DNA of 64,000 nt, taken from contig JAWVEN010000004.1 of assembly GCA_033856675.1 (NCBI GenBank), positions 233,653-297,652 of the forward strand, in the 5' to 3' direction. Below, piece by piece: positions 6,848 to 40,823 of the stretch. Each line of letters begins with the position of its first letter. Within the stretch, counting starts at the first letter, position 1. The translations under genes and the position numbers were made by a program. The DNA is from Gaiellales bacterium (GTDB lineage: Bacteria > Actinomycetota > Thermoleophilia > Gaiellales > JAICJC01). The notes below the pieces were generated by a model. That model worked only from the letters and a program-made list of their open reading frames with translations. It did no database searches and was not told the origin of the DNA.

Positions 6848-6920
6848 GGCGAGGTAGCTCAGTTGGTAGAGCACGCGACTGAAAATCGCGGTGTCGGCAG
6901 TTCGACTCTGCCCCTCGCCA
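6848..6920 (+). tRNA. tRNA-Phe (GAA)
   Basis: Acceptor stem GGCGAGG/CCTCGCC, D-arm AGCTCAGTTGGTAGAGC, anticodon loop CTGAAAA, T-loop GTTCGAC; 73 nt, CCA not encoded; TAGACT -10 box just upstream. Confidence 0.97.
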
Positions 6921-11287: not shown

Positions 11288-11599
11288 CTACTGCAATGCA
11301 AGTTGCAGCTGGACGGTTCGCCCGGTGGCGGCAAGTGCCCGGATGAACTGCTCTGTCTCCGGATCGTCGCCGGCCGCAAGCGCGACCTCGTAGTCGTCGT
11401 CGAGAAACGTGATCACCTGCTCGACGATCGCATCGAGCCACATCTCCCTCGCCTCCGGCACGAGCCCGGGTGGGCAAAGCGCGATCACGCCCCACCCAGC
11501 CTCCTCCAGCGCAGCGAGGTGGTCGACACCGCCCGGAGGGCCGTTCACTACATTGTCGGGCACGATGGCAACCCGCTGGGAGCGGGCATCACCCCGCAT
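11288..11599 (-). CDS. Hypothetical 103-aa protein, partner 1 of TudS-like gene
   Basis: ATG overlaps upstream gene; MRGDARSQRVAIV..GGVDHLAALEEAGWGVIAL is paralogous to 15878..16219. Confidence 0.75.
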   Translation of the reverse strand: MRGDARSQRVAIVPDNVVNGPPGGVDHLAALEEAGWGVIALCPPGLVPEAREMWLDAIVEQVITFLDDDYEVALAAGDDPETEQFIRALAATGRTVQLQLALQ

Positions 11600-12155
11600 G
11601 CTTGGCTCCGGGAGCGGGCGGGAGCTCCTGCCCCAACTTCGCGAGCTCTCGCCTCTCGTCGTAGTCGAACAGATCCTGGCCGATCCCGACGATCCGAACA
11701 TGTGGCCGCTCGAGGTCGAGCAGGCCGACCAGCATCTCGATGAAGATTCCGGGTCCCGGCGTCACGGGGTAGTCCTCGTCGCGCGGCTTGTCGGGCCGGC
11801 CGCCCCACTCGTCGCTGGATGCGGTCAGCTCGACGCCCATGCTGGGGCTGCCGTCGATGCCGATGATGATGACCCGGTCGCCCGCCGCCAGGTCGGCGCG
11901 GATCTGCGCTGCGAGCGGATCCGCGAGCTTGAGGCAGTGCGCCCGATAGGCGCGGGTGTCGTACTGCTCCCGTACCGCCCAGAAGCGTCGGAGTCCGCCG
12001 AAGGCGAGCTCCGGGCACGGCATCTGCCGAAGCGTACAGCCGCGCTCGCGAAGCAGCGAGACAACGGGAACGGACACGCCCGCCGAGCGGGCTCCCTCAT
12101 CGACCTTCGCGTTGGCGTTGAGCAGGCAGTGGGCCAGATAGCAGACCGTGCCCAT
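11589..12155 (-). CDS. DUF523/TudS-related (CD3072-like) putative desulfidase, copy 1
   Basis: AHCLLN, QMPCPE, EQYDT..RAHC, GIDGSPSMGV motifs. Confidence 0.75.
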   Translation of the reverse strand: MGTVCYLAHCLLNANAKVDEGARSAGVSVPVVSLLRERGCTLRQMPCPELAFGGLRRFWAVREQYDTRAYRAHCLKLADPLAAQIRADLAAGDRVIIIGIDGSPSMGVELTASSDEWGGRPDKPRDEDYPVTPGPGIFIEMLVGLLDLERPHVRIVGIGQDLFDYDERRELAKLGQELPPAPGAKHAG

Positions 12156-12161
12156 CGCAGG

Positions 12162-12887
12162 TCAGCCTCCGTGGCCGGGCATGCCGACGTAGGCGATCGA
12201 CTCCGGCCACCCGTACGCGCCCGTCTTGCTGGTGCGAAGCCCGCAGCTCCACAGCGAGAACGCAACCATCGAGCCGTACGAGACGCCGTCGGACACTGGC
12301 ACTCCGAGCGCCTCACGGACGGCGGCCGCAACGTCCGACATGCCCCCGCAGGCGAACACCAGAGCCTCGGCGCGCTGCTCGTCGACGAGCCGGCGGCCGG
12401 TCTCGATGATCGCATCGGTGGTGTCGGGATTGTGGCTGCCCTGCTCGGCCACCGGGATATCGAGCGCCGCGATCCCGGCACAGCGCCCGCGAATCCCCTG
12501 GCGGTCGAGCGCATCCTCGAGGGCCGGGATGCTGCGAGGCAGCGTCGTCACGATCGCAAACCGCCTGGCGACCATGCTCGCCGCCTGGTAGGCGGCCTCG
12601 CCGATGCCGACCACGGGCGCATCCGTGAGCTCACGCGCCGCATCGAGCCCCGGGTCGCCGAAGCAGGCGATCAGGTAGGCGTCCTGCGCGGGCAGCGTGC
12701 GAATCAGCGTGACGACCTCGGCGGCGGCGACCACTGAGTCTGCGTCGCTCTCGATCGACGACGGCCCGCGCTGGGGGGACACTGCCGTTACCTCACAGCC
12801 CGGCGGGAGCGTTGCGATGGCGACATCTCCCATCGCGGCGGTGTGCACCGGGTCTGTGTTTGGATTGATCAATCCGAGCTTGAACAC
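12162..12887 (-). CDS. Hydantoin/allantoin racemase (Asp/Glu racemase family)
   Basis: LINPNT, GPSSIE, IACFGDPGLDAAREL, ACGGM second Cys; GTG start with GAAGGGG RBS. Confidence 0.9.
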   Translation of the reverse strand: MFKLGLINPNTDPVHTAAMGDVAIATLPPGCEVTAVSPQRGPSSIESDADSVVAAAEVVTLIRTLPAQDAYLIACFGDPGLDAARELTDAPVVGIGEAAYQAASMVARRFAIVTTLPRSIPALEDALDRQGIRGRCAGIAALDIPVAEQGSHNPDTTDAIIETGRRLVDEQRAEALVFACGGMSDVAAAVREALGVPVSDGVSYGSMVAFSLWSCGLRTSKTGAYGWPESIAYVGMPGHGG

Positions 12888-12948
12888 GCAGTTCCCCTTC
12901 GCCGACGACGGAGTCCGATCATAATGGTGCGGTGAGCCGGGGACTCGA

Positions 12949-13731
12949 ATGAATCTGGATCTCCAGGGCTGTGTCGCGATTGTCGGCGGTGCGTCGTCGG
13001 GCATGGGGAGGGCGTGCGCGATGGCGCTCGCGGACGAGGGCTGCCACGTCGCCCTGTTCGCGCGGAGGCAGGAGCTGCTGGACGAGGCGGTCGCCGAGAT
13101 CGAGGCGCTCGGCCAGGGAGCAGCCGGCCTTGCCGTTGCGGGCGACGCCTCCGATCCTGCCGCGTTGCAGTCGGTCGTGGACAGGACGCTGGAGCGCTTC
13201 GGCCGGCTGGACATCGTCATCAACAACACCGGTGGACCCCCGGCCGGAGGATTCGAGGAGTTCGACGACGAGCAGTGGCGAGCAGCGTGGGAGCTGACGC
13301 TGATGTCCACGCTGCGGCTGACGCGGCTGGCGTTGCCGGCCCTGCGCGAGAGCGGGCGCGGGCGCATCGTCAACATCACCTCGTCCGCCGTGAAAGAGCC
13401 GAACGAGGGGCTGCTGCTGTCCAACACCTACCGTCCGGGTGTGATCGGCTGGGCCAAGACCCTGTCGCAGGACGAGGGGCCAAACGGGATCACCGTCAAC
13501 TCGATCGCTCCCGGGTACATCGACACCGAGCGGATGAAGAACCTCTACGCCGGAGGCGACGATCCCGAGGGGGCCCGCCGGCACGACCAGGCCGCAATCC
13601 CGGCCCGGCGGTTCGGCGACCCGAAGGAGATCGGCGATGCGGTCGCATTCCTGTGCTCGACTCGTGCGTCGTACATCAACGGCATCACGCTGCTGATCGA
13701 CGGTGGTCTCGCCAAGGGACTGCTCAGCTGA
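12949..13731 (+). CDS. SDR-family oxidoreductase (NTGGPP subtype)
   Basis: GGASSGMG, NNTGGPP, LSNTYR active-site variant, SIAPG. Confidence 0.92.
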   Translation: MNLDLQGCVAIVGGASSGMGRACAMALADEGCHVALFARRQELLDEAVAEIEALGQGAAGLAVAGDASDPAALQSVVDRTLERFGRLDIVINNTGGPPAGGFEEFDDEQWRAAWELTLMSTLRLTRLALPALRESGRGRIVNITSSAVKEPNEGLLLSNTYRPGVIGWAKTLSQDEGPNGITVNSIAPGYIDTERMKNLYAGGDDPEGARRHDQAAIPARRFGDPKEIGDAVAFLCSTRASYINGITLLIDGGLAKGLLS

Positions 13732-14510
13732 GCGGCCGCCTGGATGGCAAGGCCATCGTCGTCACCGGCGCGGCGTCAGGCCTGGGCCGCGCCATGGCGC
13801 TGGCGTTCGCCGCCGAGGGGGCCCACGTGGTGGTCGGCGACGTGCGCGAAGACCCGCGCGAGGGCGGCCGCCCGACCGTTGAGCTGATCGCCGAACAGGG
13901 TGGCAACGCGATCTTCGTCCATGCGGACGCATCGCGATGGGACGACATCGAACGGCTCGTCGGTACCGCGGTGCAGCTGCGCGGACGCCTCGACGTGATG
14001 GTGAACAACGCGATCGTCGCAGGCCCGTACTCGAAAGGGCTGCTCGAGACCGAGGAACAGGACTGGGACACGATCATGGCAGTCGGCCTGCGCGGAGTGT
14101 TCCTCTGCTGCAAGCGCGCGGTGCAGCAGATGCTGTCCCAGGAGCCGGTGGCCGAGGCGCGCGGGCGCATCATCAACCTGTCGTCCCAGCACGGAATGGT
14201 CGGCACACCCGGGCACATCGCCTACTGCGCCGCCAAGGGCGGTGTCGTGAACCTCACCCGGCAGGTTGCGGTGGATTTCGGTGCCCGGGGGATCATCGTG
14301 AACGCCATCGCCCCCGGGAAGATCCTCACCCGGCCTGTCGACGAACCGGACTCACCGGAGGTGCTGGCCTACTCGCATGCCCGCACGCCGTTCTCTCGCC
14401 TCGGCCGCCCCGACGACGTCGCCGCCGCCGCCGTGTTCCTGGCGTCGGATGACTGCACGTATGTCAGCGGCACGAACTTGCTCGTCGACGGGGGGTGGAT
14501 GGCGTTCTGA
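13728..14510 (+). CDS. SDR-family oxidoreductase (probable CTG start)
   Basis: LSGRLDGKAIVVTGAASGLG, VNNA, SQHG, YCAAK, VDGG; CTGA overlap with upstream stop. Confidence 0.9.
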   Translation: MSGRLDGKAIVVTGAASGLGRAMALAFAAEGAHVVVGDVREDPREGGRPTVELIAEQGGNAIFVHADASRWDDIERLVGTAVQLRGRLDVMVNNAIVAGPYSKGLLETEEQDWDTIMAVGLRGVFLCCKRAVQQMLSQEPVAEARGRIINLSSQHGMVGTPGHIAYCAAKGGVVNLTRQVAVDFGARGIIVNAIAPGKILTRPVDEPDSPEVLAYSHARTPFSRLGRPDDVAAAAVFLASDDCTYVSGTNLLVDGGWMAF

Positions 14511-14528
14511 CCGCCATGGCCCTCCATC

Positions 14529-15299
14529 TCAGTAGGCCATCCAGCCGCCGTCGACCATGAGATTGGTCCCGCTCACGTAGCTCGCGTCCGAGGCGAGGAA
14601 GGCGACGGCGCTTGCGACGTCTTCAGGGCGCCCCAGCCGTGAAAACGGTGTCCGCGACTGCACGTAGGCAAAGCCCGCCTCATCTGCGCTCAGGTCACCC
14701 GCGGTGCCGGTCACGATCTTTCCCGGCGCGACCGCGTTGGACAGGATGCCGTCACGCCCGTAGTCGACGGCGATCTGGCGGGTCATCTGGATCAGCCCTC
14801 CCTTGCCGACGCTGTAGGTGAAGTGCCCCGGGGCGCCGACCATACCGTGCTGCGATGTGATGTTGATGATCCTCCCGCGGGCGTCGCCCACCAGCGGCTG
14901 GCGCAACATCTGCACGACGGCCGCGCGGCTGAGGAGGTACGGACCGCGGAGGTTCACCGCCATCATTGCGTCCCAGTCCTCCTCCGTCGTCTCCAGCAGC
15001 GACTTCGAGTGTGCGCCCGCCAGGACGGCGTTGTTGACGAGGACGTCCAGAGCACCCGTGCGCTCAACGGCCGTATCCACCAGCCCCTGGCAATCGTCAG
15101 GGTCGGAGACGTCGGCCCCGATGTGCACGGCGCTCCCGCCCTGGCCGCGGATGACGTCCTCCGTCGGCTCTCCGCCGGTGAGCGGATCGCGCCGGATGTC
15201 GGCGAGCACCACGTCGAATCCATCGGCGGCAAGCCGGATCGAAACCGCTCGCCCGATTCCCGAGGACGCGCCCGTGACGACGGCGCTTCGCTGACTCAT
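14529..15299 (-). CDS. SDR-family oxidoreductase, paralog of 13728..14510
   Basis: TGASSGIG, VNNA, SQHG, YSVGK; ends VDGGWMAY versus VDGGWMAF. Confidence 0.92.
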   Translation of the reverse strand: MSQRSAVVTGASSGIGRAVSIRLAADGFDVVLADIRRDPLTGGEPTEDVIRGQGGSAVHIGADVSDPDDCQGLVDTAVERTGALDVLVNNAVLAGAHSKSLLETTEEDWDAMMAVNLRGPYLLSRAAVVQMLRQPLVGDARGRIINITSQHGMVGAPGHFTYSVGKGGLIQMTRQIAVDYGRDGILSNAVAPGKIVTGTAGDLSADEAGFAYVQSRTPFSRLGRPEDVASAVAFLASDASYVSGTNLMVDGGWMAY

Positions 15300-15331
15300 A
15301 TGATCTCCCTTCGGCTTCGTATACTCACTCG

Positions 15332-15877
15332 ATGCCAAGCGTTGCGTTCGTCGCCCACTGTCTGCTCAACCAGAACTCCAAGACGGACGGCGGCGCTCGC
15401 TGCCCTGGCATCTACTCGCCATTGGTCGACGAGTTGCGCGCCCGCGGATGGCGGATCGAGCAGATGCCGTGCCCGGAGCTCGCGTTCACTGGCCTCAACC
15501 GCTTCTGGGCCGTCAAGGAGCAGCTCGACACCTCGGCCTTCCGCCGGCACTGTCGGCGCCTCGCCGCTGCCGTCGCAGGTGCGATCGAGGTTCATGTTGC
15601 CAGGGGTGACGACGTGATCCTGGTCGGCATCGACGGCAGCCCGTCGATGGGTGTGCACGTGACGAGCTCCGATCCCGAGCGGGGAGGACGCCCGACCTGG
15701 CCGGACGGCAGCGATGAGCTGTCGCCCGGGAGCGGCATCTTCCTCGAAGAGCTGACCGCCGAGCTCGGTCAGCGGGGCGTGACTGCCCCGCGTGCGATCG
15801 GGATCACCCACCAGCTTCCCGGCCACGACCCAGCCGATGAGCGCGCCGCCCTGGTGAAGCTGATGGAGGCCGGGTAG
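15332..15877 (+). CDS. DUF523/TudS-related (CD3072-like) putative desulfidase, copy 2
   Basis: AHCLLNQN, QMPCPE, RRHC, GIDGSPSMGV; TATACT 6 nt before ATG (leaderless). Confidence 0.75.
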   Translation: MPSVAFVAHCLLNQNSKTDGGARCPGIYSPLVDELRARGWRIEQMPCPELAFTGLNRFWAVKEQLDTSAFRRHCRRLAAAVAGAIEVHVARGDDVILVGIDGSPSMGVHVTSSDPERGGRPTWPDGSDELSPGSGIFLEELTAELGQRGVTAPRAIGITHQLPGHDPADERAALVKLMEAG

Positions 15878-16219
15878 GTGGAGGGCGATCTTCGCGGATT
15901 CCGCGTGGCGCTGGTCACCGGGGAACTGCTGAATCCGCAGGACGGCGGGCTCGACGCGCTCGCGGTCCTCCAGCAGGAGGACTGGGGCGCCATCCAGCTT
16001 CCGGCTGCGGAGTATCCCGACGGCGTTGCCGGCCCGTTGCTCGACCAGGCGGCCGAGCAGGCCGAGGAGTTCGCGCGGCACGGATACCGGCTCGCGGTCG
16101 TCGGGCACCGAGATGGGCTGACTGAGGCCCTCGGCCGCTATGGGGTTCCGCGGCCGCCGACCATCGACCCGGCGAGCGCCGAGGAGCTGCGAAGCTTCCT
16201 GGCCTCCGCAGGCGGCTGA
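15878..16219 (+). CDS. Hypothetical 113-aa protein, partner 2 of TudS-like gene
   Basis: Abuts upstream stop; MEGDLRGFRVALV..GGLDALAVLQQEDWGAIQL paralogous to 11288..11599. Confidence 0.75.
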   Translation: MEGDLRGFRVALVTGELLNPQDGGLDALAVLQQEDWGAIQLPAAEYPDGVAGPLLDQAAEQAEEFARHGYRLAVVGHRDGLTEALGRYGVPRPPTIDPASAEELRSFLASAGG

Positions 16220-16223: not shown

Positions 16224-16979
16224 GTGCCGGGAAGAGTGCTGGTCACAGGCGCCGCTTCGGGTATCGGGAGGGCGACCGTGCTGCGCCTTGCGCGGGACGG
16301 CGCGGTGGTCGCGTGTGTCGACGTGAACGCTGACGGGCTGGCCGAGACCGTGGCCGAGGTCGAGCGCAAAGGCGGGCGCGCCACCGCCGTCACAGCCGAC
16401 ATCAGCGACCTTGCCGCGGTGGAGAGGGCCGTGGGCTCCGCGGCCGAGAGCCTGGCGGGGCTGGACGGCGTCGCGAATGTCGCGGGCATCGGCGACTTCA
16501 CGGGAGACGTGACCGAGACCGCGCCGGATGCGTGGGCGCGCGTGCTGGCAGTCAACCTGACCGGCGCGTTCAATGTCTCGCGCTGTGCGATCCCCCACCT
16601 GCGGGCGGCCGGCGGCGGGGTGATCGTCAACGTGGGGTCGCAGTTCGCGCTGGTCGGGTGTCTCGCGAGTCCTGCGTACTGCGCCTCCAAGGCGGGGCTG
16701 ATCGGGCTCACCCGGGCGATGGCGATCGACCACACGGGCGAGGGCATCCGCGTCAACTGCGTGTGCCCCGGTCCGGTGGACACGCCGATGATGTGGGGCA
16801 CTTCCGCGACGCCGGAGTTGACGGCCCGCGAGCGGGCACGCACGCAGGGCCGAAACCTCATAGGCAGACAGGGGCGGCCGGAGGAGATCGCCGCGACGAT
16901 CGCCTTCATCATGTCCGACGAGGCAGGTTCGATGACGGGCAGCGTTGTCACCCTGGACGGAGGCTGGACGGCGGGATAG
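16224..16979 (+). CDS. SDR-family oxidoreductase
   Basis: TGAASGIG, NVAG, YCASK, CVCPGPVDT, LDGG. Confidence 0.92.
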   Translation: MPGRVLVTGAASGIGRATVLRLARDGAVVACVDVNADGLAETVAEVERKGGRATAVTADISDLAAVERAVGSAAESLAGLDGVANVAGIGDFTGDVTETAPDAWARVLAVNLTGAFNVSRCAIPHLRAAGGGVIVNVGSQFALVGCLASPAYCASKAGLIGLTRAMAIDHTGEGIRVNCVCPGPVDTPMMWGTSATPELTARERARTQGRNLIGRQGRPEEIAATIAFIMSDEAGSMTGSVVTLDGGWTAG

Positions 16980-17048
16980 GTCGGTTCCGCGTTGTCAGTG
17001 CCTCGACGTGCTTCCGGGCTATCGCACCGGCGCCGACGAGGCCGACTC

Positions 17049-17465
17049 TCATCGTTCGCGGCTCTCGCTGTCCGGACGCCGGAGGAACTGGTACTGGACG
17101 CCGCCGCTGGTCTCCGCCATTGTCCAGATCATCTCGGCGGTGCCCGACGGGAACGGCGGCCAGGACACCACCACGCCCCGGCTCTCGAGCTCGCTGCGAA
17201 CGGCCTCGAGGTCGTCGACCTCGAAGGCGATGTGCTCAATCCTGGCCGGCTCGCCGGGCGGCAGCCGGCGCTCGCGGGCCTCCTGGTCACGGACGTCGAT
17301 CAGTTCGACGCTGGCATCGCCACACGGGTAGTACACGGCGAAGCTCTCGTCGTTCTCGTTCGACTTCCCGAAGGAGAGGCCAAGCGCCTCGAGTTGCGCG
17401 ACGTGCGCGTCGAGGTCGGCCACGACGATTCCGACGTGGTCGATGCGCTTGAGCGCAGCGGTCAC
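17049..17465 (-). CDS. VOC/glyoxalase-family protein (epimerase-like)
   Basis: IDHVGIVVADLD, VELI, EHIAFEVDDLE. Confidence 0.85.
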   Translation of the reverse strand: MTAALKRIDHVGIVVADLDAHVAQLEALGLSFGKSNENDESFAVYYPCGDASVELIDVRDQEARERRLPPGEPARIEHIAFEVDDLEAVRSELESRGVVVSWPPFPSGTAEMIWTMAETSGGVQYQFLRRPDSESRER

Positions 17466-18433
17466 TCTCCACCCGGCATCTCGAGCAGCACCTTGCCAAG
17501 CTTTCCGGGCTCCCGCACATAGTCGAGCGCGTCGGCGGCCTCCGCCAGCGGAAACACGCAGTGGACGAGCGGAGTGACCGTTCCGTCGGCCAGGAAGGGC
17601 ACCACGCACTTTCCGAACTCGTTCACCAGGCTCGCCTTCTCGTGGGGTGGCCGGGTGCGAAGCGTGGTGCCGATCAGGTGCGCCCGGCGGCTCATCAGGT
17701 CACGCAGAACCACGGTTGCCTCGTCGCCAGGCTTGGCGCCGACGACAACCAACCGCCCGCCGCGGGCGAGCGCTTCGACGTTCCGGCTCATGTGCGTCGC
17801 GCCGACGAGTTCCAGGACGACATCCGCGCCGCCCAGCGCGGCGACCCGTTCGAACGCCTCGTCGGCGCCGACGGCCACCGCTCCGAGCTCGGCGACCCGT
17901 GGACACAGCTCCACCGACCGGACGTTCGCGACGACGCGGGCGCCGAGGGCGCGCGCGATCTGCACCGCGGCGGTTCCGACGCCGCCGCTGGCGCCGTTGA
18001 CCAGGAGCGTGTCGCCCGATGCCAGACCCGCCTGCGTGAGCGCATCGAATGCGGTGATGAACGCCTGGGGCACCGCGGCCGCCGCGAGGTCGTCCAGTGT
18101 CTCGGGGACCGCCAGCAGGTCTCCCTCCGATGCGACCACGCGGTCGGCCAGGCCGCCGCCGCCGACCAGGCCGAACGCCCGGTCGCCGACGTTGAAACGC
18201 GTCACGGCGTCGCCGGTCGCGACAACCGTTCCCGCAACCTCGAGCCCTGGGATGTCGACCGGCGAACCGGGCGGCACGGGATGGCGCCCCTCCCGCTGCA
18301 GGACATCGGCCGGGTTGACGCCCGCAAACCGGGGCGCGATCAGCACCTCGAACTTCGACGGCACCGGGTCGGGGCGCTCCTCGACGGCCACGACGTCACG
18401 GCCGCCGGCACCGCGATAGACGACGCATCTCAT
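17462..18433 (-). CDS. NAD(P)H:quinone oxidoreductase (zeta-crystallin/MDR family)
   Basis: GVNPADVLQREG, IPGLEVAG, NGASGGVG, GKVLL. Confidence 0.9.
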   Translation of the reverse strand: MRCVVYRGAGGRDVVAVEERPDPVPSKFEVLIAPRFAGVNPADVLQREGRHPVPPGSPVDIPGLEVAGTVVATGDAVTRFNVGDRAFGLVGGGGLADRVVASEGDLLAVPETLDDLAAAAVPQAFITAFDALTQAGLASGDTLLVNGASGGVGTAAVQIARALGARVVANVRSVELCPRVAELGAVAVGADEAFERVAALGGADVVLELVGATHMSRNVEALARGGRLVVVGAKPGDEATVVLRDLMSRRAHLIGTTLRTRPPHEKASLVNEFGKCVVPFLADGTVTPLVHCVFPLAEAADALDYVREPGKLGKVLLEMPGGE

Positions 18434-18446
18434 CGCTGTGACACGC

Positions 18447-19379
18447 TCACGAGGGCGGGTAGGTGTCCAGCCACCACCGGGCGATGTCGCACCGGCGCAT
18501 GAAACGCACACCGGGCTGGCGCTGTGCATGTTCGATGAACGTACGCAGCGCGGCTGCCCGCGCGGCCTGGCCGCTCCAGCGGGCGTGCACTGCGACTGTC
18601 ATCATCGTCCGCCGCGTCTCGCTCTCGCGCACCAGCTCGTCCAGCCCCATGACGATCGTGTCGAGAAAGTCGCGGGGGCTGGCGAACCCCGGGTTCATCA
18701 GGAATCGGGCGTCGTTATACGTCTTCGAGTAGGGCACGACCAGCATCGGGGTGCCGCCGACCGGCTCGTAATACGGCACGTCGTCCGCATAGCCCTCCGA
18801 GTGGTACAGAAAGCCTCCCAGCTCGAGCAGCAGCTCGCGGGTGTTCTCGCTCGGCCAGCTGCGCGAGCTCCAGCCAAGCGGACGGCTGCCGAGCACGCGC
18901 TCGAAGCTCTCGATTGCGCGCGCGATCGATGCCTTCTCCTCCTCGCGGCTGTACGTCCAAGCCTCGGTCCAGCGCCAGCCGTGGCCCAGCAGGTCGTGGT
19001 CGTGCTCGCGCATCCACTCCGCGACGGCGGGGTTCAGCTCCAGCGCAACCGCGGCGCCCGACACCGTCACGGGCACGCCGGCGTCGTCGAAGATCCGCGC
19101 CAGTCGCCATACGCCTGCGCGGCTGCCGTACTCGTAATGCGACTCGGTGCCGGGGTCGCGCTGAGGGGGCTTCACCCCTGGGTCGGCGTACTCGCCCCAG
19201 CCGTCATTGCGGTTGTCGCCCCACATGACCGAGTACTCGGAGCCCTCCTCGTAGACCAGCACGAGGTTCACGACCACCCGGGCGTCATCGGGCCATTCGA
19301 AGCTGGGAGGCGTCGGGCCGTAGCCGGCGAGGTCTCGCTCGCGGACGGCCGCGGGGATCAGGTCGGGTCGCTCCGGCAA
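18447..19379 (-). CDS. PuuE/allantoinase-like polysaccharide-deacetylase-family hydrolase
   Basis: RDLAGYG..WPDDARVVVNLVLVYEEG, ESHYEYGSRAGVWR, GHGWRW, HARWSG. Confidence 0.85.
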   Translation of the reverse strand: MPERPDLIPAAVRERDLAGYGPTPPSFEWPDDARVVVNLVLVYEEGSEYSVMWGDNRNDGWGEYADPGVKPPQRDPGTESHYEYGSRAGVWRLARIFDDAGVPVTVSGAAVALELNPAVAEWMREHDHDLLGHGWRWTEAWTYSREEEKASIARAIESFERVLGSRPLGWSSRSWPSENTRELLLELGGFLYHSEGYADDVPYYEPVGGTPMLVVPYSKTYNDARFLMNPGFASPRDFLDTIVMGLDELVRESETRRTMMTVAVHARWSGQAARAAALRTFIEHAQRQPGVRFMRRCDIARWWLDTYPPS

Positions 19380-19382
19380 CGG

Positions 19383-19817
19383 TTACCCGGCGGCCACGAC
19401 GTCGGCGGAGACGCTCAGGGTGACGCGGTCCGCGATGGCCTGGCACACCGGACAATGAGCCTGCGCTTCGTCGATCAGCGCCCGCACCTGCTCGATCGGT
19501 GCGGGCGTTTCGACGCGGGTGTGCAGCGCGGCCTCCGAGAGATGGTGGCTCGAGCCGTCGCCCCACCGGAGCTGCGTCGAGACGCTGGTCTCGATCTCGC
19601 CGAGCGGGATCCCGCGCGCCCGCGCCATGCCCGTCAGCGTCGAGGTGAAGCAGTTTGCCAATGCGGCCGAGAACAGCTCCTCGGGGTTCGACTCACCCCC
19701 GGGCCCGCCGAGCTCGGTCTGGGTGGCCGTCGCCACGGAAAGAGCACCTGATCCGCCTTCGATGCTGCCGTGAAAGCCGTTCCAACGGAGGGTGGCTGAG
19801 GCGCTGAGGGATTCCAT
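19383..19817 (-). CDS. OsmC/Ohr-family protein
   Basis: NPEELFSAALANCF and AHCPV Cys motifs; TAGACT 7 nt before ATG. Confidence 0.85.
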   Translation of the reverse strand: MESLSASATLRWNGFHGSIEGGSGALSVATATQTELGGPGGESNPEELFSAALANCFTSTLTGMARARGIPLGEIETSVSTQLRWGDGSSHHLSEAALHTRVETPAPIEQVRALIDEAQAHCPVCQAIADRVTLSVSADVVAAG

Positions 19818-19872
19818 CGCGGCCAGTCTACGACACCGCTTGGCGCGCGGGTCGTCGTGGTAGGTTAGGTGC

Positions 19873-20610
19873 ATCGAAACTGGCAGCAACAGGGAAAACG
19901 CGTCGGCGTTTCGCCCCATCGAACGAGAAGCCAGGCTGTCGGACAAGGTGACGCAGGCCATCCTGGAGATGATTGCGTCCAGCGACCTGAAGCCGGGCGA
20001 CATGCTGCCGCCCGAACGCGAGCTGGGCAAGCAGTTCGGCGTCTCGCGAACCGTGATCCGCGAGGCGGTGAGGGCGCTCAAAGGGAAGGGTCTGCTCGAT
20101 GTGCGCAGCGGCAGCGGTGTGCGGATCGTTGCCGTCGACGAGAGCACCGTGCGCGAGTCGATGCGCCACTTCGTGCATGGCAGCATGGTCGACTACTCGA
20201 AGGTCGACGAGGTACGCCGTGTCCTCGAGGTCGCGGCCGCCGGGCTTGCCGCCGAGCGCGCCACTCCCGCAGATCTCGAAGGAATCGATGAGACCCACGA
20301 GCGGTTCTCCAAGGAATCCTCCGACCTCGAGTCGAGCGTCCGGCTCGACATCGAGTTCCACCGCGCTGTCGCGGCGGCCACCCACAACGAGCTTTTCCTG
20401 GTGCTTCACGACTCGATCGGCGAGATGCTGGTCGAGGTGCGCCGTCGCAACCTCTCGCGCGGGCCCGCGGAGCGGGGGCTGGTGGTCGAGATGCACCGGA
20501 AGATCCGCGACGGCATCGCCGCGCATGACCCTGAGGCCGCGCAGCAGGCGATGCGAGATCACCTCGGCCACGTGCAGGCGACGTGGAAGGATCAAGCGCC
20601 CTCCGACTGA
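19873..20610 (+). CDS. GntR/FadR-family transcriptional regulator (probable ATC start; first GTG at 19948)
   Basis: LPPERELGKQFGVSRTVIREA wHTH, FCD domain DIEFH..HN..H; FRPIERE..LSDKV segment lies upstream of the GTG. Confidence 0.9.
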   Translation: METGSNRENASAFRPIEREARLSDKVTQAILEMIASSDLKPGDMLPPERELGKQFGVSRTVIREAVRALKGKGLLDVRSGSGVRIVAVDESTVRESMRHFVHGSMVDYSKVDEVRRVLEVAAAGLAAERATPADLEGIDETHERFSKESSDLESSVRLDIEFHRAVAAATHNELFLVLHDSIGEMLVEVRRRNLSRGPAERGLVVEMHRKIRDGIAAHDPEAAQQAMRDHLGHVQATWKDQAPSD

Positions 20611-22232
20611 CCGAGCGGCAGCGAGTGCTCCTCGTGGGTCATCACTTCGAGCAGCGTCGCCTCGCCTGAGCGGACGCTCGCGGCGCAACGTTCGAGCGCG
20701 GCCCGAAGGTCAGCGGCCTCGCGCACGTGCTCGGCGTGTCCTCCCAGCGCACGCGCGATGGCCGCATAGTCGCCGCCGAGACGGTTCGACCGGTGGCGGT
20801 TGACCGCGTCGGGCATCCACTCGCCGTACCCGCCCATCAGGCCGTTGTTCATGACGATCGTCAGGATCGGGATGCGAGCGCGCACGGCGGTCTCGAAGTC
20901 CATTCCCACCATGCCGAATGCGGCGTCTCCCATGATGTTGACGGCCAGCCAATCGGGTCGGGCGAGCTTTGCGCCCATCGTCAGGCCGAGCCCGGTGCCG
21001 AGTTGGGTGGACTTGCCCCACCCCAGGTATCCGTGGGGAACGACGGTCTCATAGAACGGGACGATCTGGTCGCGTGGGTGGCCCGCGTCGTGCGTGACGA
21101 CGGTGCGTGTCCGATCGGCGACCTGCATCAGCTCCGACACGATGCGATAGGGGCTGAGCGGGCCGGCATCGGAGGTGAGCCGCGGCTGCCATTGCGCCAG
21201 GAACGCATCCCGCACGGAGGCGACCTCGCCTCGAACAGATTCGCGTTCCCCGCAGTCCACGCCCTCGAACGCCTCGAGCAACTGACGGAGTACAAGCTTG
21301 GCGTCCCCGACGCAGCCGAACGCGACGTCGTAGCCACCGGCAAGGTCGCGCGGGTCGTTCACGATCTGCCCAAGCGTTGCCGCGCCGGGCAGCGGGGTGA
21401 TGTAGAGCGAGCGGGTGAAGCTGGTGCCAATGCCGAGGATGACGTCTGCGCGTTCGAAGAAGCGGTCGACCGTGGCGGGCCGGCTGCGGGCGGCCGTGCC
21501 GAGCGCCAGCGCATGGTTCTCGGGGAAGGCGCTCTTGCCGTTCAGCGTTGTCGCCACAGGTGTGTTCGTGAGCTCCGCCAGCTGGAGCAGCTCGGAGCAG
21601 GCATCCGCATACAGCACGCCCTGCCCCGCAAGGATCACAGGGTTTTCGGCCGCCGCAAGGATGCGCACCGTCTCGTTCACGTCCTCGGGCGCGGCCTGCG
21701 AGCGTCGCGGCAGGGAGGAGGACATCGTCCAGTCCGCATCACCGGCGTCGCCGTTCATGACGTCGTTGGCAACGGCGACCATGACCGGGCCGTTGCGAAC
21801 GCTGCGAAGGGCGTTGAGTGCGCGGCGGAATACCTCCGGGCCGCGCTCGGCGCTGTTGAGCGTGGCAGACCAGCTGGTGATCCGTGCGTAGCTCTGCTCG
21901 CTGCGGAAGAACGGCGGAGAGTCCTGGTCCGGCACGGCGTGCTCGGTGGGGATGAACAGGATGGGGCTGCGATCTCCGTAGGCCTGCGCGACGGCGCCGA
22001 AGGCAGACTCGGCCCCCGGGCCGTACTGCGTCACGCAGGGCGCGACACCGTCGCCGCCGGTCGTCCGCGCGAAGCCGTCCGCGATGTTCACAGCGACGCG
22101 CTCGGTACGGGTGATGATCGGCCGAAGCCCGGCTGTTGAAGCCGCATCGATCAGTCTGTTCTCAGGAAACCCGACGACGAACTCGGCGCCCTCCCGGCGC
22201 AGCAGCTCGGCGATCCGGTCGGCGACAAGCAT
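20592..22232 (-). CDS. Thiamine-diphosphate-dependent enzyme (acetolactate-synthase-like family)
   Basis: RTERVAVNIADGF, GPGA, GDAAFGM...MNN ThDP motif. Confidence 0.9.
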   Translation of the reverse strand: MLVADRIAELLRREGAEFVVGFPENRLIDAASTAGLRPIITRTERVAVNIADGFARTTGGDGVAPCVTQYGPGAESAFGAVAQAYGDRSPILFIPTEHAVPDQDSPPFFRSEQSYARITSWSATLNSAERGPEVFRRALNALRSVRNGPVMVAVANDVMNGDAGDADWTMSSSLPRRSQAAPEDVNETVRILAAAENPVILAGQGVLYADACSELLQLAELTNTPVATTLNGKSAFPENHALALGTAARSRPATVDRFFERADVILGIGTSFTRSLYITPLPGAATLGQIVNDPRDLAGGYDVAFGCVGDAKLVLRQLLEAFEGVDCGERESVRGEVASVRDAFLAQWQPRLTSDAGPLSPYRIVSELMQVADRTRTVVTHDAGHPRDQIVPFYETVVPHGYLGWGKSTQLGTGLGLTMGAKLARPDWLAVNIMGDAAFGMVGMDFETAVRARIPILTIVMNNGLMGGYGEWMPDAVNRHRSNRLGGDYAAIARALGGHAEHVREAADLRAALERCAASVRSGEATLLEVMTHEEHSLPLGQSEGA

Positions 22233-22259
22233 TGGTATACCGTATCATGGCATACTGAT

Positions 22260-23363
22260 TCAGTCGGCGATGGCAGCCGCAATCGCGCCGGCTGCCCGCC
22301 GCATCACGGGCTCCGGCGCGACAGTCACGCGCGCGAATCCCGGCAGGCCGAACTCGTGTCCGCCGCGCACCAGCATTCCGGCGAGGACGAGCGCGTCGCA
22401 GACCGGTCGGTCGTCCACGCCGAGCTCGACCAGGACAAAGTTCGTGTCGGACGGGTGGCAGGCGATGCCCACGCTCGCGAGCTCGTCCTGGAGCACGGCG
22501 CGCGCCGCCGCCACCTCCGCTCGCCGCGCCGCCACGAACTCGGGATGGGAGAGCGCTGCCCGGCCGGCCGCAAGGGCGACGCGGTTGACGTTGAACGGCT
22601 CCTGCACGATGTCCAGCAGGCGAGCGACCTCCGGAGCAACGATCGCGTACCCGAGGCGCAATCCGGCGAGGCCGAAGATCTTCGAGAACGACCGCACGAC
22701 GATCACCGGGCGGTCTTCCATGACGTCCGCCTGCCGGGGGGCGCGGCGTGCCGGCTCGGCGAAGTCGATGTACGCCTCGTCGGCGATGACGATGCAGTCC
22801 TCGGGCAGTCGCTCGAGGAACGACGACCACGCTTCGGGGGCAATCAGCGACCCGGTCGGATTGTTCGGGTCACATAGCCACACCAGCCGCGCGCGGTTCG
22901 TGCGGGCCGCCCCCGCCACGGCATCGAGGTCGATGTGCAGGCCGGACGGAGGAACGCGCGTCACCGAAGCCCCGGCGGCGGCGGACACCTGGGCGTACAG
23001 CCCATAGGTCAGCTGCGGGATGACCACCGGGGTTCCGGGCTCGATGAACGCCGTGGCGAGGTTGCCGATCAGCGCCTGCGCACCGTGCGCGGGCACGACG
23101 CATGCCGGTGGAACGCCCAGCGACTCGGCGAGGCGCTCCCGGAAGTCCGCATACGCGCGCTCCGGGTAGAACTGGGCGTTGCGCAGCTCTGCGGTCGCGG
23201 CCTCGAGCACGTAGGACGGCGGGCCGAACAGGTCCTCGTTCCAGTTCAGCGGCTCCAGCTCGGAGAGCCCGTGCCGCTGTCTGAGGGCGTCGCGAGTGGG
23301 GCCGGGGTCGTAGCGCTGCAGCCCTCGCAGCGAAGGGCGGGCGAGCCGTTCCCAGTCGGTCAC
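22260..23363 (-). CDS. HisC-like PLP-dependent aminotransferase (class I/II)
   Basis: LNWNE, DPNNPTG, DEAY, RSFSKIFGLAGLRLGY. Confidence 0.9.
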   Translation of the reverse strand: MTDWERLARPSLRGLQRYDPGPTRDALRQRHGLSELEPLNWNEDLFGPPSYVLEAATAELRNAQFYPERAYADFRERLAESLGVPPACVVPAHGAQALIGNLATAFIEPGTPVVIPQLTYGLYAQVSAAAGASVTRVPPSGLHIDLDAVAGAARTNRARLVWLCDPNNPTGSLIAPEAWSSFLERLPEDCIVIADEAYIDFAEPARRAPRQADVMEDRPVIVVRSFSKIFGLAGLRLGYAIVAPEVARLLDIVQEPFNVNRVALAAGRAALSHPEFVAARRAEVAAARAVLQDELASVGIACHPSDTNFVLVELGVDDRPVCDALVLAGMLVRGGHEFGLPGFARVTVAPEPVMRRAAGAIAAAIAD

Positions 23364-24634
23364 GCCTCGGCCAGCTCCCGGAGCGCGGGCTCGAGCACTC
23401 GGACACATGCCGCGATCGCTTCCCGGCCGGTCAGCTCCTCGGGCGCGTGGCTGACGCCACCGGCATCGCTTCGCACGAAGAGCATCGCCGAGGGCACGCC
23501 CGCCATGCCCAGGATCGCCGCGTCATGGCCGGCGCCTGACGGCAGCTCGACCGCGTCGATCCCCAGCTCTGCGATCCAGCGATGCAGCGCGGCCTTTGGA
23601 CGTTCGCTCATTGGCACGGGCTCGTACCGCCACCTGTCCGCCACCTCGACCTGGCAGTTCAGGTCGGCAGCGGCTGCGCGTGCGGCTGAAACGACTCCCG
23701 CGCTGAGGGAATCGAGCCGCTCGGCGTCGGGTGCTCGCATGTCGGCGAACAGCTCCACAAGGTCGGGGATCGTGTTCGTCGCCCCCGGGGACACCGTCAT
23801 TCTCCCGATCGTGGTCACCGCCCCGGGGATCGAGCGGGCGACGTCGTGCGCCCGTTCGACGAATCGCGCGGCGGCGCCGACGGCGTCTGCTCGCAGCGCC
23901 ATGGCAACTGTGCCGGCGTGACCCCGGCGCCCGCGAAATGTCACCTCGATGCCCGCCATCCCGGCGATCGACGTCACCACCCCGAGCGGCGCGCCGGCTG
24001 CGGCGAGCGTCGGGCCCTGCTCGATGTGCGTTTCCACGTAGGCGAACGGGGGCAGGTCAAGCCAGCCGCGCTCCGGCAGCTCGCCCAGGCCGAGCTCGCT
24101 GAACGCCTCGCCGAGGGAGATGCCGTCGGCATCCCGTAGGTCGGCCTCATCGGCTTCGAGCATGCCGCACACGGCTCGGCTGCCGAACAGTCCGCGCCCG
24201 AAGCGGCATCCCTCCTCGAGGCGGAAGGCAACCACAGCAACGGAGCGCTGCGCGCCACCGCTGGACGCAATGGCCACCGCAGCATCCAGCGCAGCCAGCA
24301 CTCCCAGCGCCCCGTCGAACCGGCCGCCGTCGGGTGGCGTGTCCAGGTGTGAGCCGCTCCAGACCTCAGGCAGCGCTGGGTCGGACCCCCGTGCACGACC
24401 GAACAGGTTGCCGGCCGGGTCGGAAGTCACATCGAGGTTCGCATCCTCCATCCAGCCGCGAACGAGCTCGAAGGCCCGCTGCTCTCCCTCGCCGAGGCCG
24501 GCCCGGTTCGTACCGGCTGCGCGCCCGATCTCGAACAGCGTGTCCAGCCGTTCGACCATTCGGTCGGCCCGAGCCTCGACGTCGTCGGCGTCAGACCGGC
24601 GAGATTCGCCTAAGGAGCTGTGAAACCCGCCCAC
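23360..24634 (-). CDS. M20 Zn amidohydrolase (allantoate amidohydrolase / N-carbamoyl-L-amino acid hydrolase family)
   Basis: GSHLDT, GRFDGALGV, EEGCRF, ETHIEQG, HAGT, SGAGHDA, SHAPEE; CATACT 6 nt before GTG. Confidence 0.92.
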   Translation of the reverse strand: MGGFHSSLGESRRSDADDVEARADRMVERLDTLFEIGRAAGTNRAGLGEGEQRAFELVRGWMEDANLDVTSDPAGNLFGRARGSDPALPEVWSGSHLDTPPDGGRFDGALGVLAALDAAVAIASSGGAQRSVAVVAFRLEEGCRFGRGLFGSRAVCGMLEADEADLRDADGISLGEAFSELGLGELPERGWLDLPPFAYVETHIEQGPTLAAAGAPLGVVTSIAGMAGIEVTFRGRRGHAGTVAMALRADAVGAAARFVERAHDVARSIPGAVTTIGRMTVSPGATNTIPDLVELFADMRAPDAERLDSLSAGVVSAARAAAADLNCQVEVADRWRYEPVPMSERPKAALHRWIAELGIDAVELPSGAGHDAAILGMAGVPSAMLFVRSDAGGVSHAPEELTGREAIAACVRVLEPALRELAEA

Positions 24635-31813: not shown

Positions 31814-33325
31814 TTACGAACCGGCTCGCAGCGCGATGAAGAAATCCACCCGGTCCTCCATCGACGACAACGAGCGGCCAGTAAGCCGCTCGACCCGTGC
31901 GAGCCTGTGGCGAAGCGTGTTGACGTGCACGTGCAGCCGGTCGGCGGTGGCCTGCCACTGACCGCCTGAGCTGAGGAAGGCGTCGAGCGTGTCGATGAGC
32001 TGCGTGTGGCGACGCGCATCGTGCTCCTCGAGCGGCTGCAGGAGGGCCCGGCGGAAGGCTGCGAGGACTTCTTCGTCCTGCATCGCCAGCAGCAGCGTGT
32101 GAGACCCGACCTCGCCGTGGACGGCGTACGCGAGACCCTGGCGGCGAAGCCGCGCGAACCGGCAGGCGTGGCGCGCCTCGACCAGGCTCGTCCGCAGCGA
32201 CTGCGCCGAGGGTACGACGCCGCCGACTCCCACGGCGGCGTTGCCGCCAAGCGCCTCGGCGACGCTTCGAGCGAGATCGGCGAGGCCCTCGTCGCCGCCG
32301 TCCCAGCGGGCGATGGCCACGACCTCCATGCCCTTGGACGCCACCACGCCGGTCGCGCCGCAACTCATCAGCGCGTCCTCGACCGCGTCGACCGCCTCGT
32401 CGAGCGGCGCGCCCTCGCAGACCAGTCCGACCACCGGCGCATCGGGGTCGACGCCGAACGCCTCCAGCCGCGCCGCTGCAGCGGGAAGCTGCGGCGGCCC
32501 TGCGCTCACCAGGTCGATCAGCTCGGCGGCGAACCGCCGCTCGCTCTCGCGCAACGCACGCCTGCGCGCCAGCTCGAGGCCCAGGAAGGGCAGGGTCTGG
32601 TCGATCGCAGCGCGGTCCTCGACCGAGAGCGGCTCGTCGCCGGCCGCGACGACCAGGTGGGCCTCGGTGCGGCCCACCGCCACCACGGGAAACACCAGCC
32701 AGTCGCCGACGCTGACCGGGTATTCCGGCTGGAGGCGCGCAGCCTCCGTGCCGACGGCTTCGATGTCGCCGGCAGTCGGCTCGGCGCCGCGCCGGGCGAG
32801 GACGTGCCGGTCACGGCCGACCACCCAGCTTTGCATACCGCGGGAGCGCGCGAGGACGGCCAGGATCCCATCCAGCCCCGCGCCGTGCTCGGCCGCGCGC
32901 ACGAGTGCGGCATGCCGGCGCACCGTTCGCTGCAGCGCCTCCTCGCGGTCGGTTGCGAGGCGCTCGACGAACGCCTCCGCGATCGCGATGAACGGCAGCT
33001 CGTACGGCACCGTGAAGAACGTCAGGCGCCGCCGCTTACAGGCGGCGACGAGGCCCGGCGGGACGGTGGCGTCCGGTCGCGGGATGCCGTAGCCGAGAGC
33101 TGCGACCCCCGCGGCTGCGAGCGGGCGAACGAACTCGGCCGGCTTCGTACCGGCGTCGATCCAGACGCCCGTCGTCAGGATCACCTCGCCGCCCTGGAGG
33201 TAGAGCGAGGGATCGGCGAGCTCCGTCGTGTGCACCCAGCGCACCCTGCGATCGATCTCGCGCTCGACGAGCAGCTCGAGCCCGAGCGCAGGGTCTTCGA
33301 TCAGATCCCGTACGGTCATCGGCAT
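31814..33325 (-). CDS. PucR-family transcriptional regulator
   Basis: N-terminal PucR domain VRWVHTTELADP..GGEVILTTG; C-terminal HTH TADRLHVHVNTLRHRL. Confidence 0.93.
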   Translation of the reverse strand: MPMTVRDLIEDPALGLELLVEREIDRRVRWVHTTELADPSLYLQGGEVILTTGVWIDAGTKPAEFVRPLAAAGVAALGYGIPRPDATVPPGLVAACKRRRLTFFTVPYELPFIAIAEAFVERLATDREEALQRTVRRHAALVRAAEHGAGLDGILAVLARSRGMQSWVVGRDRHVLARRGAEPTAGDIEAVGTEAARLQPEYPVSVGDWLVFPVVAVGRTEAHLVVAAGDEPLSVEDRAAIDQTLPFLGLELARRRALRESERRFAAELIDLVSAGPPQLPAAAARLEAFGVDPDAPVVGLVCEGAPLDEAVDAVEDALMSCGATGVVASKGMEVVAIARWDGGDEGLADLARSVAEALGGNAAVGVGGVVPSAQSLRTSLVEARHACRFARLRRQGLAYAVHGEVGSHTLLLAMQDEEVLAAFRRALLQPLEEHDARRHTQLIDTLDAFLSSGGQWQATADRLHVHVNTLRHRLARVERLTGRSLSSMEDRVDFFIALRAGS

Positions 33326-33408
33326 TGGATGATCCTCCAACGCGGACCATAGAACGTTGCAGCGTCCTACGGTTGTAGCGCCTGCTGCAAAGGCGCAGAC
33401 TCTCCGCC

Positions 33409-34287
33409 ATGAGCGGCTTCGCGTGGCCCAAGGGGACTCGGGCCGGTTTCGCACTCACGTTCGATGTCGACGCCGAATCGGCGATCCTCGCCGTCGATCC
33501 GGCCTACGCCCGCAGGCTGACGACCATGAGCCACCAGGCGTACGGCCCAAAGGTCGGAGTGCCGCGAATCCTGCGGATGCTGGAGCGGCAGGGGCTGAAG
33601 GCGACGTTCTTCATCCCCGGGCTGACGGCCGACCGCTACCCGCACACCGTGGAGGCGGTTGCGGAGGCCGGCCACGAGATCGGCCACCACGGGTACTCAC
33701 ACGTCCCGCTGCATCAACTCGACGAGGCCGGGGAGCGGCGGGAGATCGAGCGCGCACTGGAAAGCCTGGAGCGAATCCTCGGGCACGCCCCGGCCGGATT
33801 CCGGGCGCCGTGGTGGGAGCTGAACGACCGCACCCCTGGCCTGCTGGTGGAGTACGGCTTCCGCTTCGACTCCAGCATGATGGACGACGACCGGCCGTAC
33901 CTGCTGGCAACCGAGCGGGGCACGCTCGCCGAGCTGCCCGTCCACTGGATGCTCGACGACTGGGAGCAGTACGCCTTTCTGCCGGAGCCCAACATCGGCA
34001 GCGTCATCGAGTCGCCGTCGAAGGTGCTCGACCTGTGGACGTCGGAGCTCGACGCGCTCGCCGACGATGGCGGCCTCTTCGTCCACACCTCTCATCCGTT
34101 CCTTTCCGGCCGTGCGTCGCGCGTCGCCACGCTCGAGCGACTGGCAGAGCACGCGGGCGCCCGGGGCGATCTGTGGTCCGGCGCCCTCAGGGAGATCGCC
34201 GACCACACACACTCCACGATCGCCCCGGACGACGCACGGCCGGTGCCTGTCTGCATCATCGAGGAGGACGTATATGTCAATCGCTGA
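33409..34287 (+). CDS. Polysaccharide-deacetylase-family hydrolase (PgdA/PuuE-like)
   Basis: TFDVDAE, YGPKVGVPR, GHHGYSH, FRAPWW, LDDW, HPFLSGR. Confidence 0.9.
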   Translation: MSGFAWPKGTRAGFALTFDVDAESAILAVDPAYARRLTTMSHQAYGPKVGVPRILRMLERQGLKATFFIPGLTADRYPHTVEAVAEAGHEIGHHGYSHVPLHQLDEAGERREIERALESLERILGHAPAGFRAPWWELNDRTPGLLVEYGFRFDSSMMDDDRPYLLATERGTLAELPVHWMLDDWEQYAFLPEPNIGSVIESPSKVLDLWTSELDALADDGGLFVHTSHPFLSGRASRVATLERLAEHAGARGDLWSGALREIADHTHSTIAPDDARPVPVCIIEEDVYVNR

Positions 34288-39170: not shown

Positions 39171-39187
39171 GGAAGGAGCGTACTGCC

Positions 39188-40810: not shown

Positions 40811-40823
40811 GAGAGGAGACGCG

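Follow-up and report, generated by a model that had tools for sequence, protein, structure and literature searches.

TudS (DUF523, PF04463; PDB 6Z92/6Z96) is a [4Fe-4S] thiouracil and 4-thio-UMP desulfidase, and TudS-type desulfidases are known as monomeric enzymes with three cysteines at the [4Fe-4S] cluster. A two-part variant of this design, in which the enzyme is accompanied by a cofactor-less paralog, is encoded twice on a stretch of 64,000 nucleotides from a Gaiellales bacterium (contig JAWVEN010000004.1 of assembly GCA_033856675.1, positions 233,653 to 297,652; this whole stretch is called the window below). Comparative analyses confirmed that the two-part design is real and conserved, and no description of it has been found for TudS. 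The pairs belong to a widespread clade in which one cluster ligand has been lost, the catalytic residues have been kept, and a dead paralog has been gained as a near-obligate companion, and this clade is a natural test of Fe-S re-ligation and of the origin of pseudoenzyme subunits. To judge from sequences and gene neighbourhoods, the pair is likely a two-part enzyme for the degradation of ring compounds that contain nitrogen. With a probability of about 0.42 for all parts together, it is proposed here to be a heteromeric enzyme that uses a [4Fe-4S]-type metal for the hydrolytic desulfidation of a thio-ureide or thio-nucleobase before ring opening. Taken separately, it is quite probable that enzyme and partner form a heteromer, and somewhat favoured that the enzyme has retained an Fe-S cluster.

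All four genes are intact open reading frames at the coordinates given in an earlier note on this DNA that had been made from the sequence alone, and each large gene is directly followed by a small one, as described there. The two large proteins share 51% identity (E 3e-56) and the two partners 35% over 88 aa (E 2e-10), and both partners match the motif reported in the note. Also HCLLN, PCPE, RxHC and GIDGSPSMG can be read in both large proteins, with the Met codons of SPSMG at 11838-11840 (copy 1) and 15647-15649 (copy 2). The label "DUF523-like" that the large proteins had been given is right with respect to the fold but not to the sequence family: neither matched any Pfam family at E <= 0.1, and thus not PF04463/DUF523, and a PF04463 search of their own genome (75.8% complete) also gave no match. 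The best family match is NF045597 (NCBIfam "CD3072 family TudS-related putative desulfidase") with 107.1 bits for copy 1 and 114.3 bits for copy 2 (E 6e-31 and 4e-33), both below the equivalog cut-off of 130 bits, which was exceeded in none of the 151 genomes of an order-level set. The alignment covers profile positions 3-139 of 148, and HCxxN, PCPE and the helix residue Cys74 are kept; homologs of the large protein carry the Pfam tag PF27735. An AlphaFold model of the large protein (mean predicted local distance difference test score, pLDDT, 79.7) has TudS 6Z92 as best fold match (Z 10.0, root-mean-square deviation 3.7, 142 aligned residues; next match Z 7.2), in agreement with Foldseek (probability 1.0, E 1.4e-3). 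PDB sequence searches with P0002 and its profile gave spurious matches to designed proteins only.

According to the accessible part of PMC10611767, the cluster of TudS is held by Cys10, Cys43 and Cys104, catalysis depends on Glu45, Ser101 and Ser103, and Arg17 and Tyr18 are substrate residues. Transferred via a canonical DUF523 protein aligned to 6Z92, the cluster cysteines correspond to Cys10, Cys47 and Met106 of the large protein, the catalytic residues to Glu49, Ser103 and Ser105, and Arg17 to Lys17; the first two cysteines are thus retained in both window copies, and the third is a methionine. In 61 large proteins that are paired with a partner, Cys10, Cys47, Glu49, Arg57, Trp59, His73, Cys74 and Ser103 are invariant, as are Ser/Thr at position 105 and Lys/Arg at position 17, and position 106 is Met in 56, Ser in three and Leu in two. 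Among the 120 best of 1386 homologs and the two window proteins, the same position is Met in 114, Leu in seven, Arg in one and never Cys. The view of the note that these proteins form a distinct subfamily of the TudS fold is supported, with the third Cys missing; the Cys-to-Met change that it described applies to both window copies, and clade-wide the replacement is Met, Leu or Ser.

In RudS, a TudS-DUF1722 fusion that de-modifies s4U (4-thiouridine) in tRNA, a catalytic Glu, two Ser and an Arg have been described in the accessible part of PMC11417400, and as the full catalytic set of TudS and RudS is retained here, it was counted for desulfidation. The main rival explanation accepts the same two-subunit enzyme but not the desulfidation: the water-activating site of TudS, now with a changed Fe-S cluster or with a single Zn or Fe on Cys10, Cys47 and His73/Cys74, would have been reused for the deamination, hydration or opening of an N-heterocycle without sulfur in the catabolism of ureides or nucleobases. 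It fits this explanation that the loss of the third Cys coincides with a clade-wide fixation of Trp59 (38/38 Cys-less versus 0/24 Cys-retaining proteins), His73 (38/38 versus 11/24) and Pro121, which is likewise specific to Cys-less proteins, as this suggests a rebuilt site. However, the residues that TudS and RudS need for desulfidation are all in place, and no result puts His73 or Cys74 close to Cys10 and Cys47. This alternative is somewhat less probable than the desulfidase, but far from negligible.

The coupling of enzyme and partner was analysed in the best 80 of 219 relatives in GTDB contigs, a locus set whose search patterns favour the Cys-less clade. The partner lies directly downstream of the enzyme in 79 of these 80 loci, and a gene pair that recurs in this way is not a matter of chance; in the 80th genome the partner is found 27 kb away, beside the usual short-chain dehydrogenase/reductase (SDR) and PuuE-like genes. 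The two genes abut or overlap in 58 of 68 cleanly called pairs, and Cys is absent from the third-ligand position in all 78 loci with a regex-readable motif. In the order-level set, the enzyme was detected in 51 genomes, the partner in 52 and both in 51, which means that every enzyme genome has a partner (51/51), and in the lone partner-only genome the enzyme is cut by the contig end directly upstream. The dedicated small partner that the note had assumed is thereby supported, and its coupling to the enzyme is tight. For 76 of 82 enzyme matches in this set the partner is at most 350 nt away; of the other six, one is at a contig end, one has a 327-aa gene inserted before the partner, one is a fragment, one is an intact extra copy that has no partner, and the last two are pieces of an extra copy with a frameshift (in G515). 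Two enzyme matches were found in 25 genomes and three in three, and same-contig duplicates were divergent in 11 of 11 cases, 3.6-12.3 kb apart. In 301 Actinomycetota genomes, a separate partner was found in none of the six genomes that have only SP[STN]C enzymes and in all four genomes with Met or Ser, and five more partner matches were weak (E 1e-5 to 6e-4, in long open reading frames). In a class sample of 151 genomes, CD3072-type genes are present in 20, in no case with a separate partner; 11 further matches in this sample were weak, and the ten of them that were inspected are ordinary DUF523 proteins. These counts have to be read with the limits that the genome samples overlap, that kin are not independent, and that only 14-29 candidates per genome were scored. 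Two unpublished genomes (L046 (G304) and G548) contribute one row each to the 79/80 and 51/51 counts, and L046 also to the 58/68 pairs and to the neighbour and promoter counts given below; no conclusion rests on either.

Two natural fusions of enzyme and partner have opposite orders, with the partner first in P0281 and the enzyme first in P0392. As the domain order in P0281 reverses the gene order, this fusion is not a read-through product, and P0392 possibly results from a lost stop codon. Among 22 matches to longer forms (374-2000 aa), no further clean enzyme-partner fusion was present. SPSMG domains were also observed as fusions behind membrane domains, including major facilitator superfamily (MFS) transporters (P0395-P0407).

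Instead of being a subunit, the partner could be a transient folding or metal-insertion helper, or a regulator, with the large protein as the sole catalyst. Such a role would be compatible with genes that are both kept although they are 27 kb apart or split by an inserted gene, with extra enzyme copies that have no partner, with the presence of just one invariant residue (Asp4) in the wide partner alignment, and with the monomeric state of holo-TudS, as given in the accessible part of PMC8961635. The abutting or overlapping codons suggest a fixed stoichiometry, though, and partners that are specific for their paralog as well as fusions in both orders also speak for a subunit, which makes a mere helper rather improbable.

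As to its nature, the partner had been regarded as a protein of unknown family, whereas by profile comparison it is a shortened, degenerate paralog of the CD3072/TudS-like family that lacks the metal ligands and active-site loops. In hhalign, 67 partners matched 14 canonical CD3072 proteins with 98.3% (E 1.4e-14) and the Cys-less enzyme clade with 96.4% (E 1.1e-9); the relation is clear only with a wide profile, as narrow profiles of partner and enzyme gave a weak 2.1%. NF045597 was matched by 8 of 67 partners (best E 6.8e-5) and was the family matched by most members, and all nine matches of the partner profile in the class sample were inside CD3072 genes. The Pfam search of the partner gave no match, and thus no DUF1722. 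In the alignment, the partner has no conserved counterparts of Cys10, Cys47, Glu49, the R-x-W segment and the SPS loop, and 41 of 68 partners have no Cys at all. The model of the partner is confident (pLDDT 91) and has the same beta-alpha order as the enzyme core; fold searches with it gave generic three-layer alpha/beta matches only (best Z 7.7, none with E <= 0.001; TudS not among the matches listed), and an ESM Atlas search gave no usable match. An N-terminal R[SG]xx[IV] motif is present in 61 of 67 partners and 19 of 24 canonical proteins, but in only one of 38 Cys-less enzymes (1/35 Met/Leu, 0/3 Ser). Since this motif was kept by the partner and lost by the Cys-less enzyme, ancestral features appear to have been divided between the two after a duplication. 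Partner homologs number 431 at the 90% level, with 169 representatives at the 50% level that include a Bathyarchaeia protein.

The module occurs in 40 of 51 genomes of the family to which the window belongs, which are soil Gaiellales-like bacteria. Enzymes with SPSSG and a partner directly behind were found on five hot-spring metagenome contigs, which seem archaeal by their gene content, in one further actinobacterial genome, and in Neorhizobium galegae, and as the cultured strain HAMBI 540 has the pair, the question of its function is directly testable. In N. galegae VafX2 (L175:9986-10560), the enzyme that is whole in HAMBI 540 is annotated as two pieces of 145 and 49 aa, due to either a frameshift or a sequencing error. 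In a tree of 63 rows that kept the motif column and left out P0281 (too gappy) and L151, L153, L156, L163-165 and L179 (trimming), the Met/Leu proteins group on a branch of their own (96/98), as do the Ser proteins (99/90); the union of the two branches is at 89/85 only and includes four long-branch Cys rows, so that a single origin is not settled by the tree. L090, L091 and L174 constitute a long-branch Cys-retaining subgroup with an insertion after PCPE on a separate branch. The window copies fall into different deep subclades, and a quick partner tree gives the same three groups, according to which each paralog has kept its own type of partner. The genome bin with the window (3.8 Mb, 75.8% complete) has exactly two NF045597 matches. 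Between the two modules, blastn detected a single shared segment of 183 nt (69%), and together with the position in different subclades this indicates an old module duplication; a recent tandem duplication was ruled out on the same grounds.

A hexamer TATACT that resembles a -10 element precedes copy 2. TAnnnT at the matching position occurs in 58 of 70 related loci, as compared to a background of 0.36%, and the hexamer is likely a leaderless promoter of the pair. The start-to-start gap to the divergent SDR gene is only 32 nt (window 15299-15332), and TATACT is part of a GTATAC palindrome that reads TATACG on the opposite strand. It may therefore serve as a -10 element in both directions, for copy 2 and for the SDR gene; a divergent SDR start is at most 120 nt away in 31 of 70 related loci. 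Such a conserved promoter-like box, like the maintenance of two paralogous pairs side by side, is difficult to reconcile with the idea that both genes are decayed, non-functional CD3072 remnants. The lost cluster ligand, the scores below the family cut-off and the one frameshifted extra copy might point to decay, but the 1386 homologs, the strict residue invariance and the intact pairs in several phyla effectively refute it.

The neighbourhood of the window's pairs is listed in Table 1. Neighbours were counted in the 80 loci, 47 of which have full flanks: SDR genes in 48, SMP-30/lactonase in 35, hydantoinase or allantoinase in 31, PuuE-like in 30, peptide-binding protein in 26, carbamoylase in 14, quinone oxidoreductase in 9-14 and racemase in seven. 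At least one hydantoinase, allantoinase, PuuE-like, carbamoylase or racemase gene is present in 53 of 80 loci. The hot-spring locus (L142:809-11283, L146) has AllG/AllH/FdrA (oxamate carbamoyltransferase-like), a cyclase, a large subunit of the xanthine dehydrogenase (XDH) family, a cytosine-deaminase-like gene and a BMP ABC transporter, and the Neorhizobium locus an NMT1/THI5 transporter, a luciferase-like monooxygenase, a nucleoside hydrolase, a cupin and a carbamoylase. Judged by gene content, the common theme points to the catabolism of N-heterocycles (ureides or nucleobases), and the module stands for a step still missing from a catabolic cluster that is common among Gaiellales-like bacteria of soil. 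The nitrogen-catabolic neighbours, including those in the hot-spring and Neorhizobium loci, would also suit the conversion of a sulfur-free ring considered above. P0404 and P0408 are fusions in which a HisC-like aminotransferase, similar to the one in the window, is followed by a third type of paralog (SPTMG), and they tie the aminotransferase to the same pathway.

Table 1. Features of the two gene pairs and their surroundings (positions in the window).
Feature	Position	Strand	Remarks
Partner, copy 1, 103 aa	11288..11599	-	shortened paralog without conserved metal ligands; 11-nt overlap with the upstream gene
TudS/CD3072-like protein, copy 1, 188 aa	11589..12155	-	Cys10, Cys47, Glu49, His73-Cys74, Ser103-Pro-Ser105-Met106; without Cys24; NF045597 107 bits
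Asp/Glu/hydantoin racemase-family gene	12162..12887	-	directly upstream of copy 1; start approximate
SDR oxidoreductase	12949-13731	+	between the copies
SDR oxidoreductase	about 13794-14510	+	between the copies
SDR oxidoreductase	14529-15299	-	divergent from copy 2; this SDR type in 48/80 loci
TATACT, -10-like hexamer	15320..15325	+	sequence; 6 nt before the ATG of copy 2
TudS/CD3072-like protein, copy 2, 181 aa	15332..15877	+	residues as in copy 1, plus Cys24; NF045597 114 bits; TudS 6Z92 Z 10.0
Partner, copy 2, 113 aa	15878..16219	+	GTG start abuts the upstream stop; model pLDDT 91
Context cluster	16236..24559		SDR, glyoxalase-like protein, PIG3-type quinone oxidoreductase, PuuE-like, OsmC-like protein, GntR regulator, thiamine pyrophosphate (TPP) enzyme, HisC-like aminotransferase, N-carbamoylase/allantoate amidohydrolase
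PuuE-like allantoinase	18447-19379
HisC-like aminotransferase	22260-23363
N-carbamoylase/allantoate amidohydrolase	23360-24559

Elsewhere in the window, a tRNA-Phe(GAA) is found at 6848-6920, just left of the cluster stretch, and is a possible island integration site. A second catabolic operon at 31814-42388 encodes a PucR-like regulator, a polysaccharide-deacetylase/PuuE-like protein, two APC transporters, two SDR-like proteins, two agmatinase-family ureohydrolases, a metallophosphoesterase and a urea-amidolyase-associated protein, and an IS1595-family (ISXO2-like) transposase is located at 43580-44506.

The proposed history and mechanism of the desulfidase can be outlined as follows. An ancestral CD3072 gene would have been duplicated. 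In one copy, Glu49, Ser103, Ser105, Arg57, Cys10 and Cys47 would have been kept and Trp59, His73 and Pro121 become fixed, whereas the SPxC cysteine and the R[SG]xx[IV] motif near the N-terminus would have disappeared. The other copy, stripped of the ligands and substrate loops but still with this motif and the core, would have become a structural subunit. Cys10 and Cys47 would bind the cluster together with a third ligand that could be Cys74, His73, a carboxylate of the partner, or none. Glu49 and the serines would activate a water for an attack on the C=S carbon, as in TudS, and the desulfurised ring would be passed on to hydantoinase or PuuE-like enzymes, carbamoylase and racemase. One Cys-to-Ala variant of RudS stayed active with two cysteines, according to the accessible part of PMC11417400.

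A more ambitious version of this proposal is unlikely to hold in all its parts: the cofactor-less twin would dock onto the enzyme and supply or position the ligand that was lost with the third Cys, which would be a new Fe-S site, and the heterodimer would catalyse the first step of an undescribed pathway, abundant in soil and spread over Actinomycetota, Chloroflexota, rhizobia and archaea of hot springs, in which thio-ureides or thio-nucleobases of natural origin are desulfurised and handed to hydantoinase and carbamoylase.

Three residues were considered as substitutes for the lost ligand. Since the residue in the place of the third Cys can be Met, Leu or Ser, Met106 is unlikely to be a ligand, and with Leu, Arg and Ser all occurring at this position, it was ruled out as such. 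Cys24 (in 56 of 61 paired proteins) was ruled out as a replacement because it is absent from copy 1 and from the Ser clade. Cys74, the further RxHC cysteine of the note, is no special feature of the subfamily, as it is present in 22 of 24 Cys-retaining CD3072-type proteins and hence ancestral, so that an origin as a substitute for the lost ligand cannot be assumed, and its evolution for that purpose was ruled out. Two canonical CD3072-type rows are devoid of it.

The ancestral presence of Cys74 is one of several points that weigh against a desulfidase with a retained cluster. The third ligand that defines TudS is gone, and Leu or Arg is found there in 8 of 122 proteins; most Cys mutants of RudS are inactive, as reported in the accessible part of PMC11417400. 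Cys74 and His73 align with a Gly-Ala of the TudS crossover helix where TudS has no ligand, and in the paired proteins the place of the substrate-stacking Tyr18 is taken by Thr, Val or Cys and never by Tyr. The region with the SPSM loop (residues 101-130) is modelled with low confidence (pLDDT 54-62). As for the heteromer, holo-TudS being a monomer (in the accessible part of PMC8961635), a dimer would not be inherited from TudS itself, enzyme copies without their own partner exist (G544:C17, G515:C5), and the two fusions, seen at the protein level, are both single-member clusters. As for the pathway, none of the ring-opening genes is present in 27 of the 80 loci, 15 of which have full flanks, and no sulfide-handling enzyme is among 23 scanned representatives of the neighbour families, which also speaks for a sulfur-free substrate.

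The conserved cysteines allow for yet another explanation, a sulfur-transfer, redox or sensing module that is no hydrolase. It could draw on three or four conserved cysteines (10, 47, 74, and mostly 24), on the frequent SDR and quinone-oxidoreductase neighbours, and on a canonical CD3072 gene in a selenocysteine operon of Enterococcus gilvus. However, the Glu/Ser/Ser set for hydrolysis shows no or hardly any variation, Cys24 is not general, and no sulfur-carrier or thiolation genes were among the scanned neighbours, which renders such a module very unlikely. The sulfur-transfer enzyme that the note had offered as a second option is thus not backed by any result, as nothing was found that points to sulfur transfer.

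Among known pathways, the catabolism of ergothioneine is closest in its logic of desulfurisation, ring opening and decarbamoylation: a thiohydantoin desulfhydrase acts first, followed by the hydantoinase ErtD and the carbamoylase ErtE. Neighbours of the pair match the ErtD and ErtE models below cut-off; the desulfhydrase of the ergothioneine pathway is not known to have the TudS fold, neither ergothionase nor thiourocanate hydratase was identified among the scanned neighbours, and no support for an ergothioneine link was found in the literature searched.

With canonical CD3072 proteins (NF045597), the large proteins share HCLLN, PCPE, Cys74 and Arg57, and they differ from them by scores below 130 bits, the loss of the SPxC cysteine and the R[SG] motif, and the fixed Trp59, His73 and Pro121. 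The canonical members seen have no partner and lie beside a CD3073 energy-coupling factor (ECF) S component in two annotated plasmids, and no match to this component was obtained among the window's neighbouring proteins scanned against NCBIfam. On plasmid pCR1A of E. gilvus (L177:1-6031), the canonical CD3072/CD3073 pair directly follows selA in a yedF-selB-selA operon, and going by this gene order canonical CD3072 may handle selenium compounds. The name "CD3072" was not found in the literature searched, and the family itself is only termed "putative".

An enzyme with a dead-paralog subunit is the general design that the pair seems to follow, in that the partner shares its ancestry with the enzyme but has none of the residues for catalysis and metal binding. 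In titles and abstract openings of the listed TudS, desulfidase and DUF523 papers, such a pair was not found described; the original TudS structure paper, other subscription papers and supplements might contain family alignments in which the Cys-less clade is visible. In RudS, too, a TudS domain works with a second domain that is not catalytic, and according to the accessible part of PMC11417400 the TudS domain has the Glu, the two Ser and the Arg needed for catalysis. RudS keeps all three cysteines, though, and its second domain, DUF1722, acts on tRNA, whereas the second chain of the pair is a paralog of the enzyme that is encoded separately, and no link to tRNA was seen. TudS itself and the large proteins share their fold and the first two cluster cysteines; Ser-Pro-Ser and the Glu of the catalytic set are also common to both, as is a basic residue in the place of Arg17. 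In contrast to TudS, which is a monomer in its holo-form as stated in the accessible part of PMC8961635, the large proteins have Met, Leu or Ser in the place of the third Cys, have lost Tyr18, do not match PF04463, and are coupled to a paralogous partner in a neighbourhood of genes for ureide or nucleobase catabolism.

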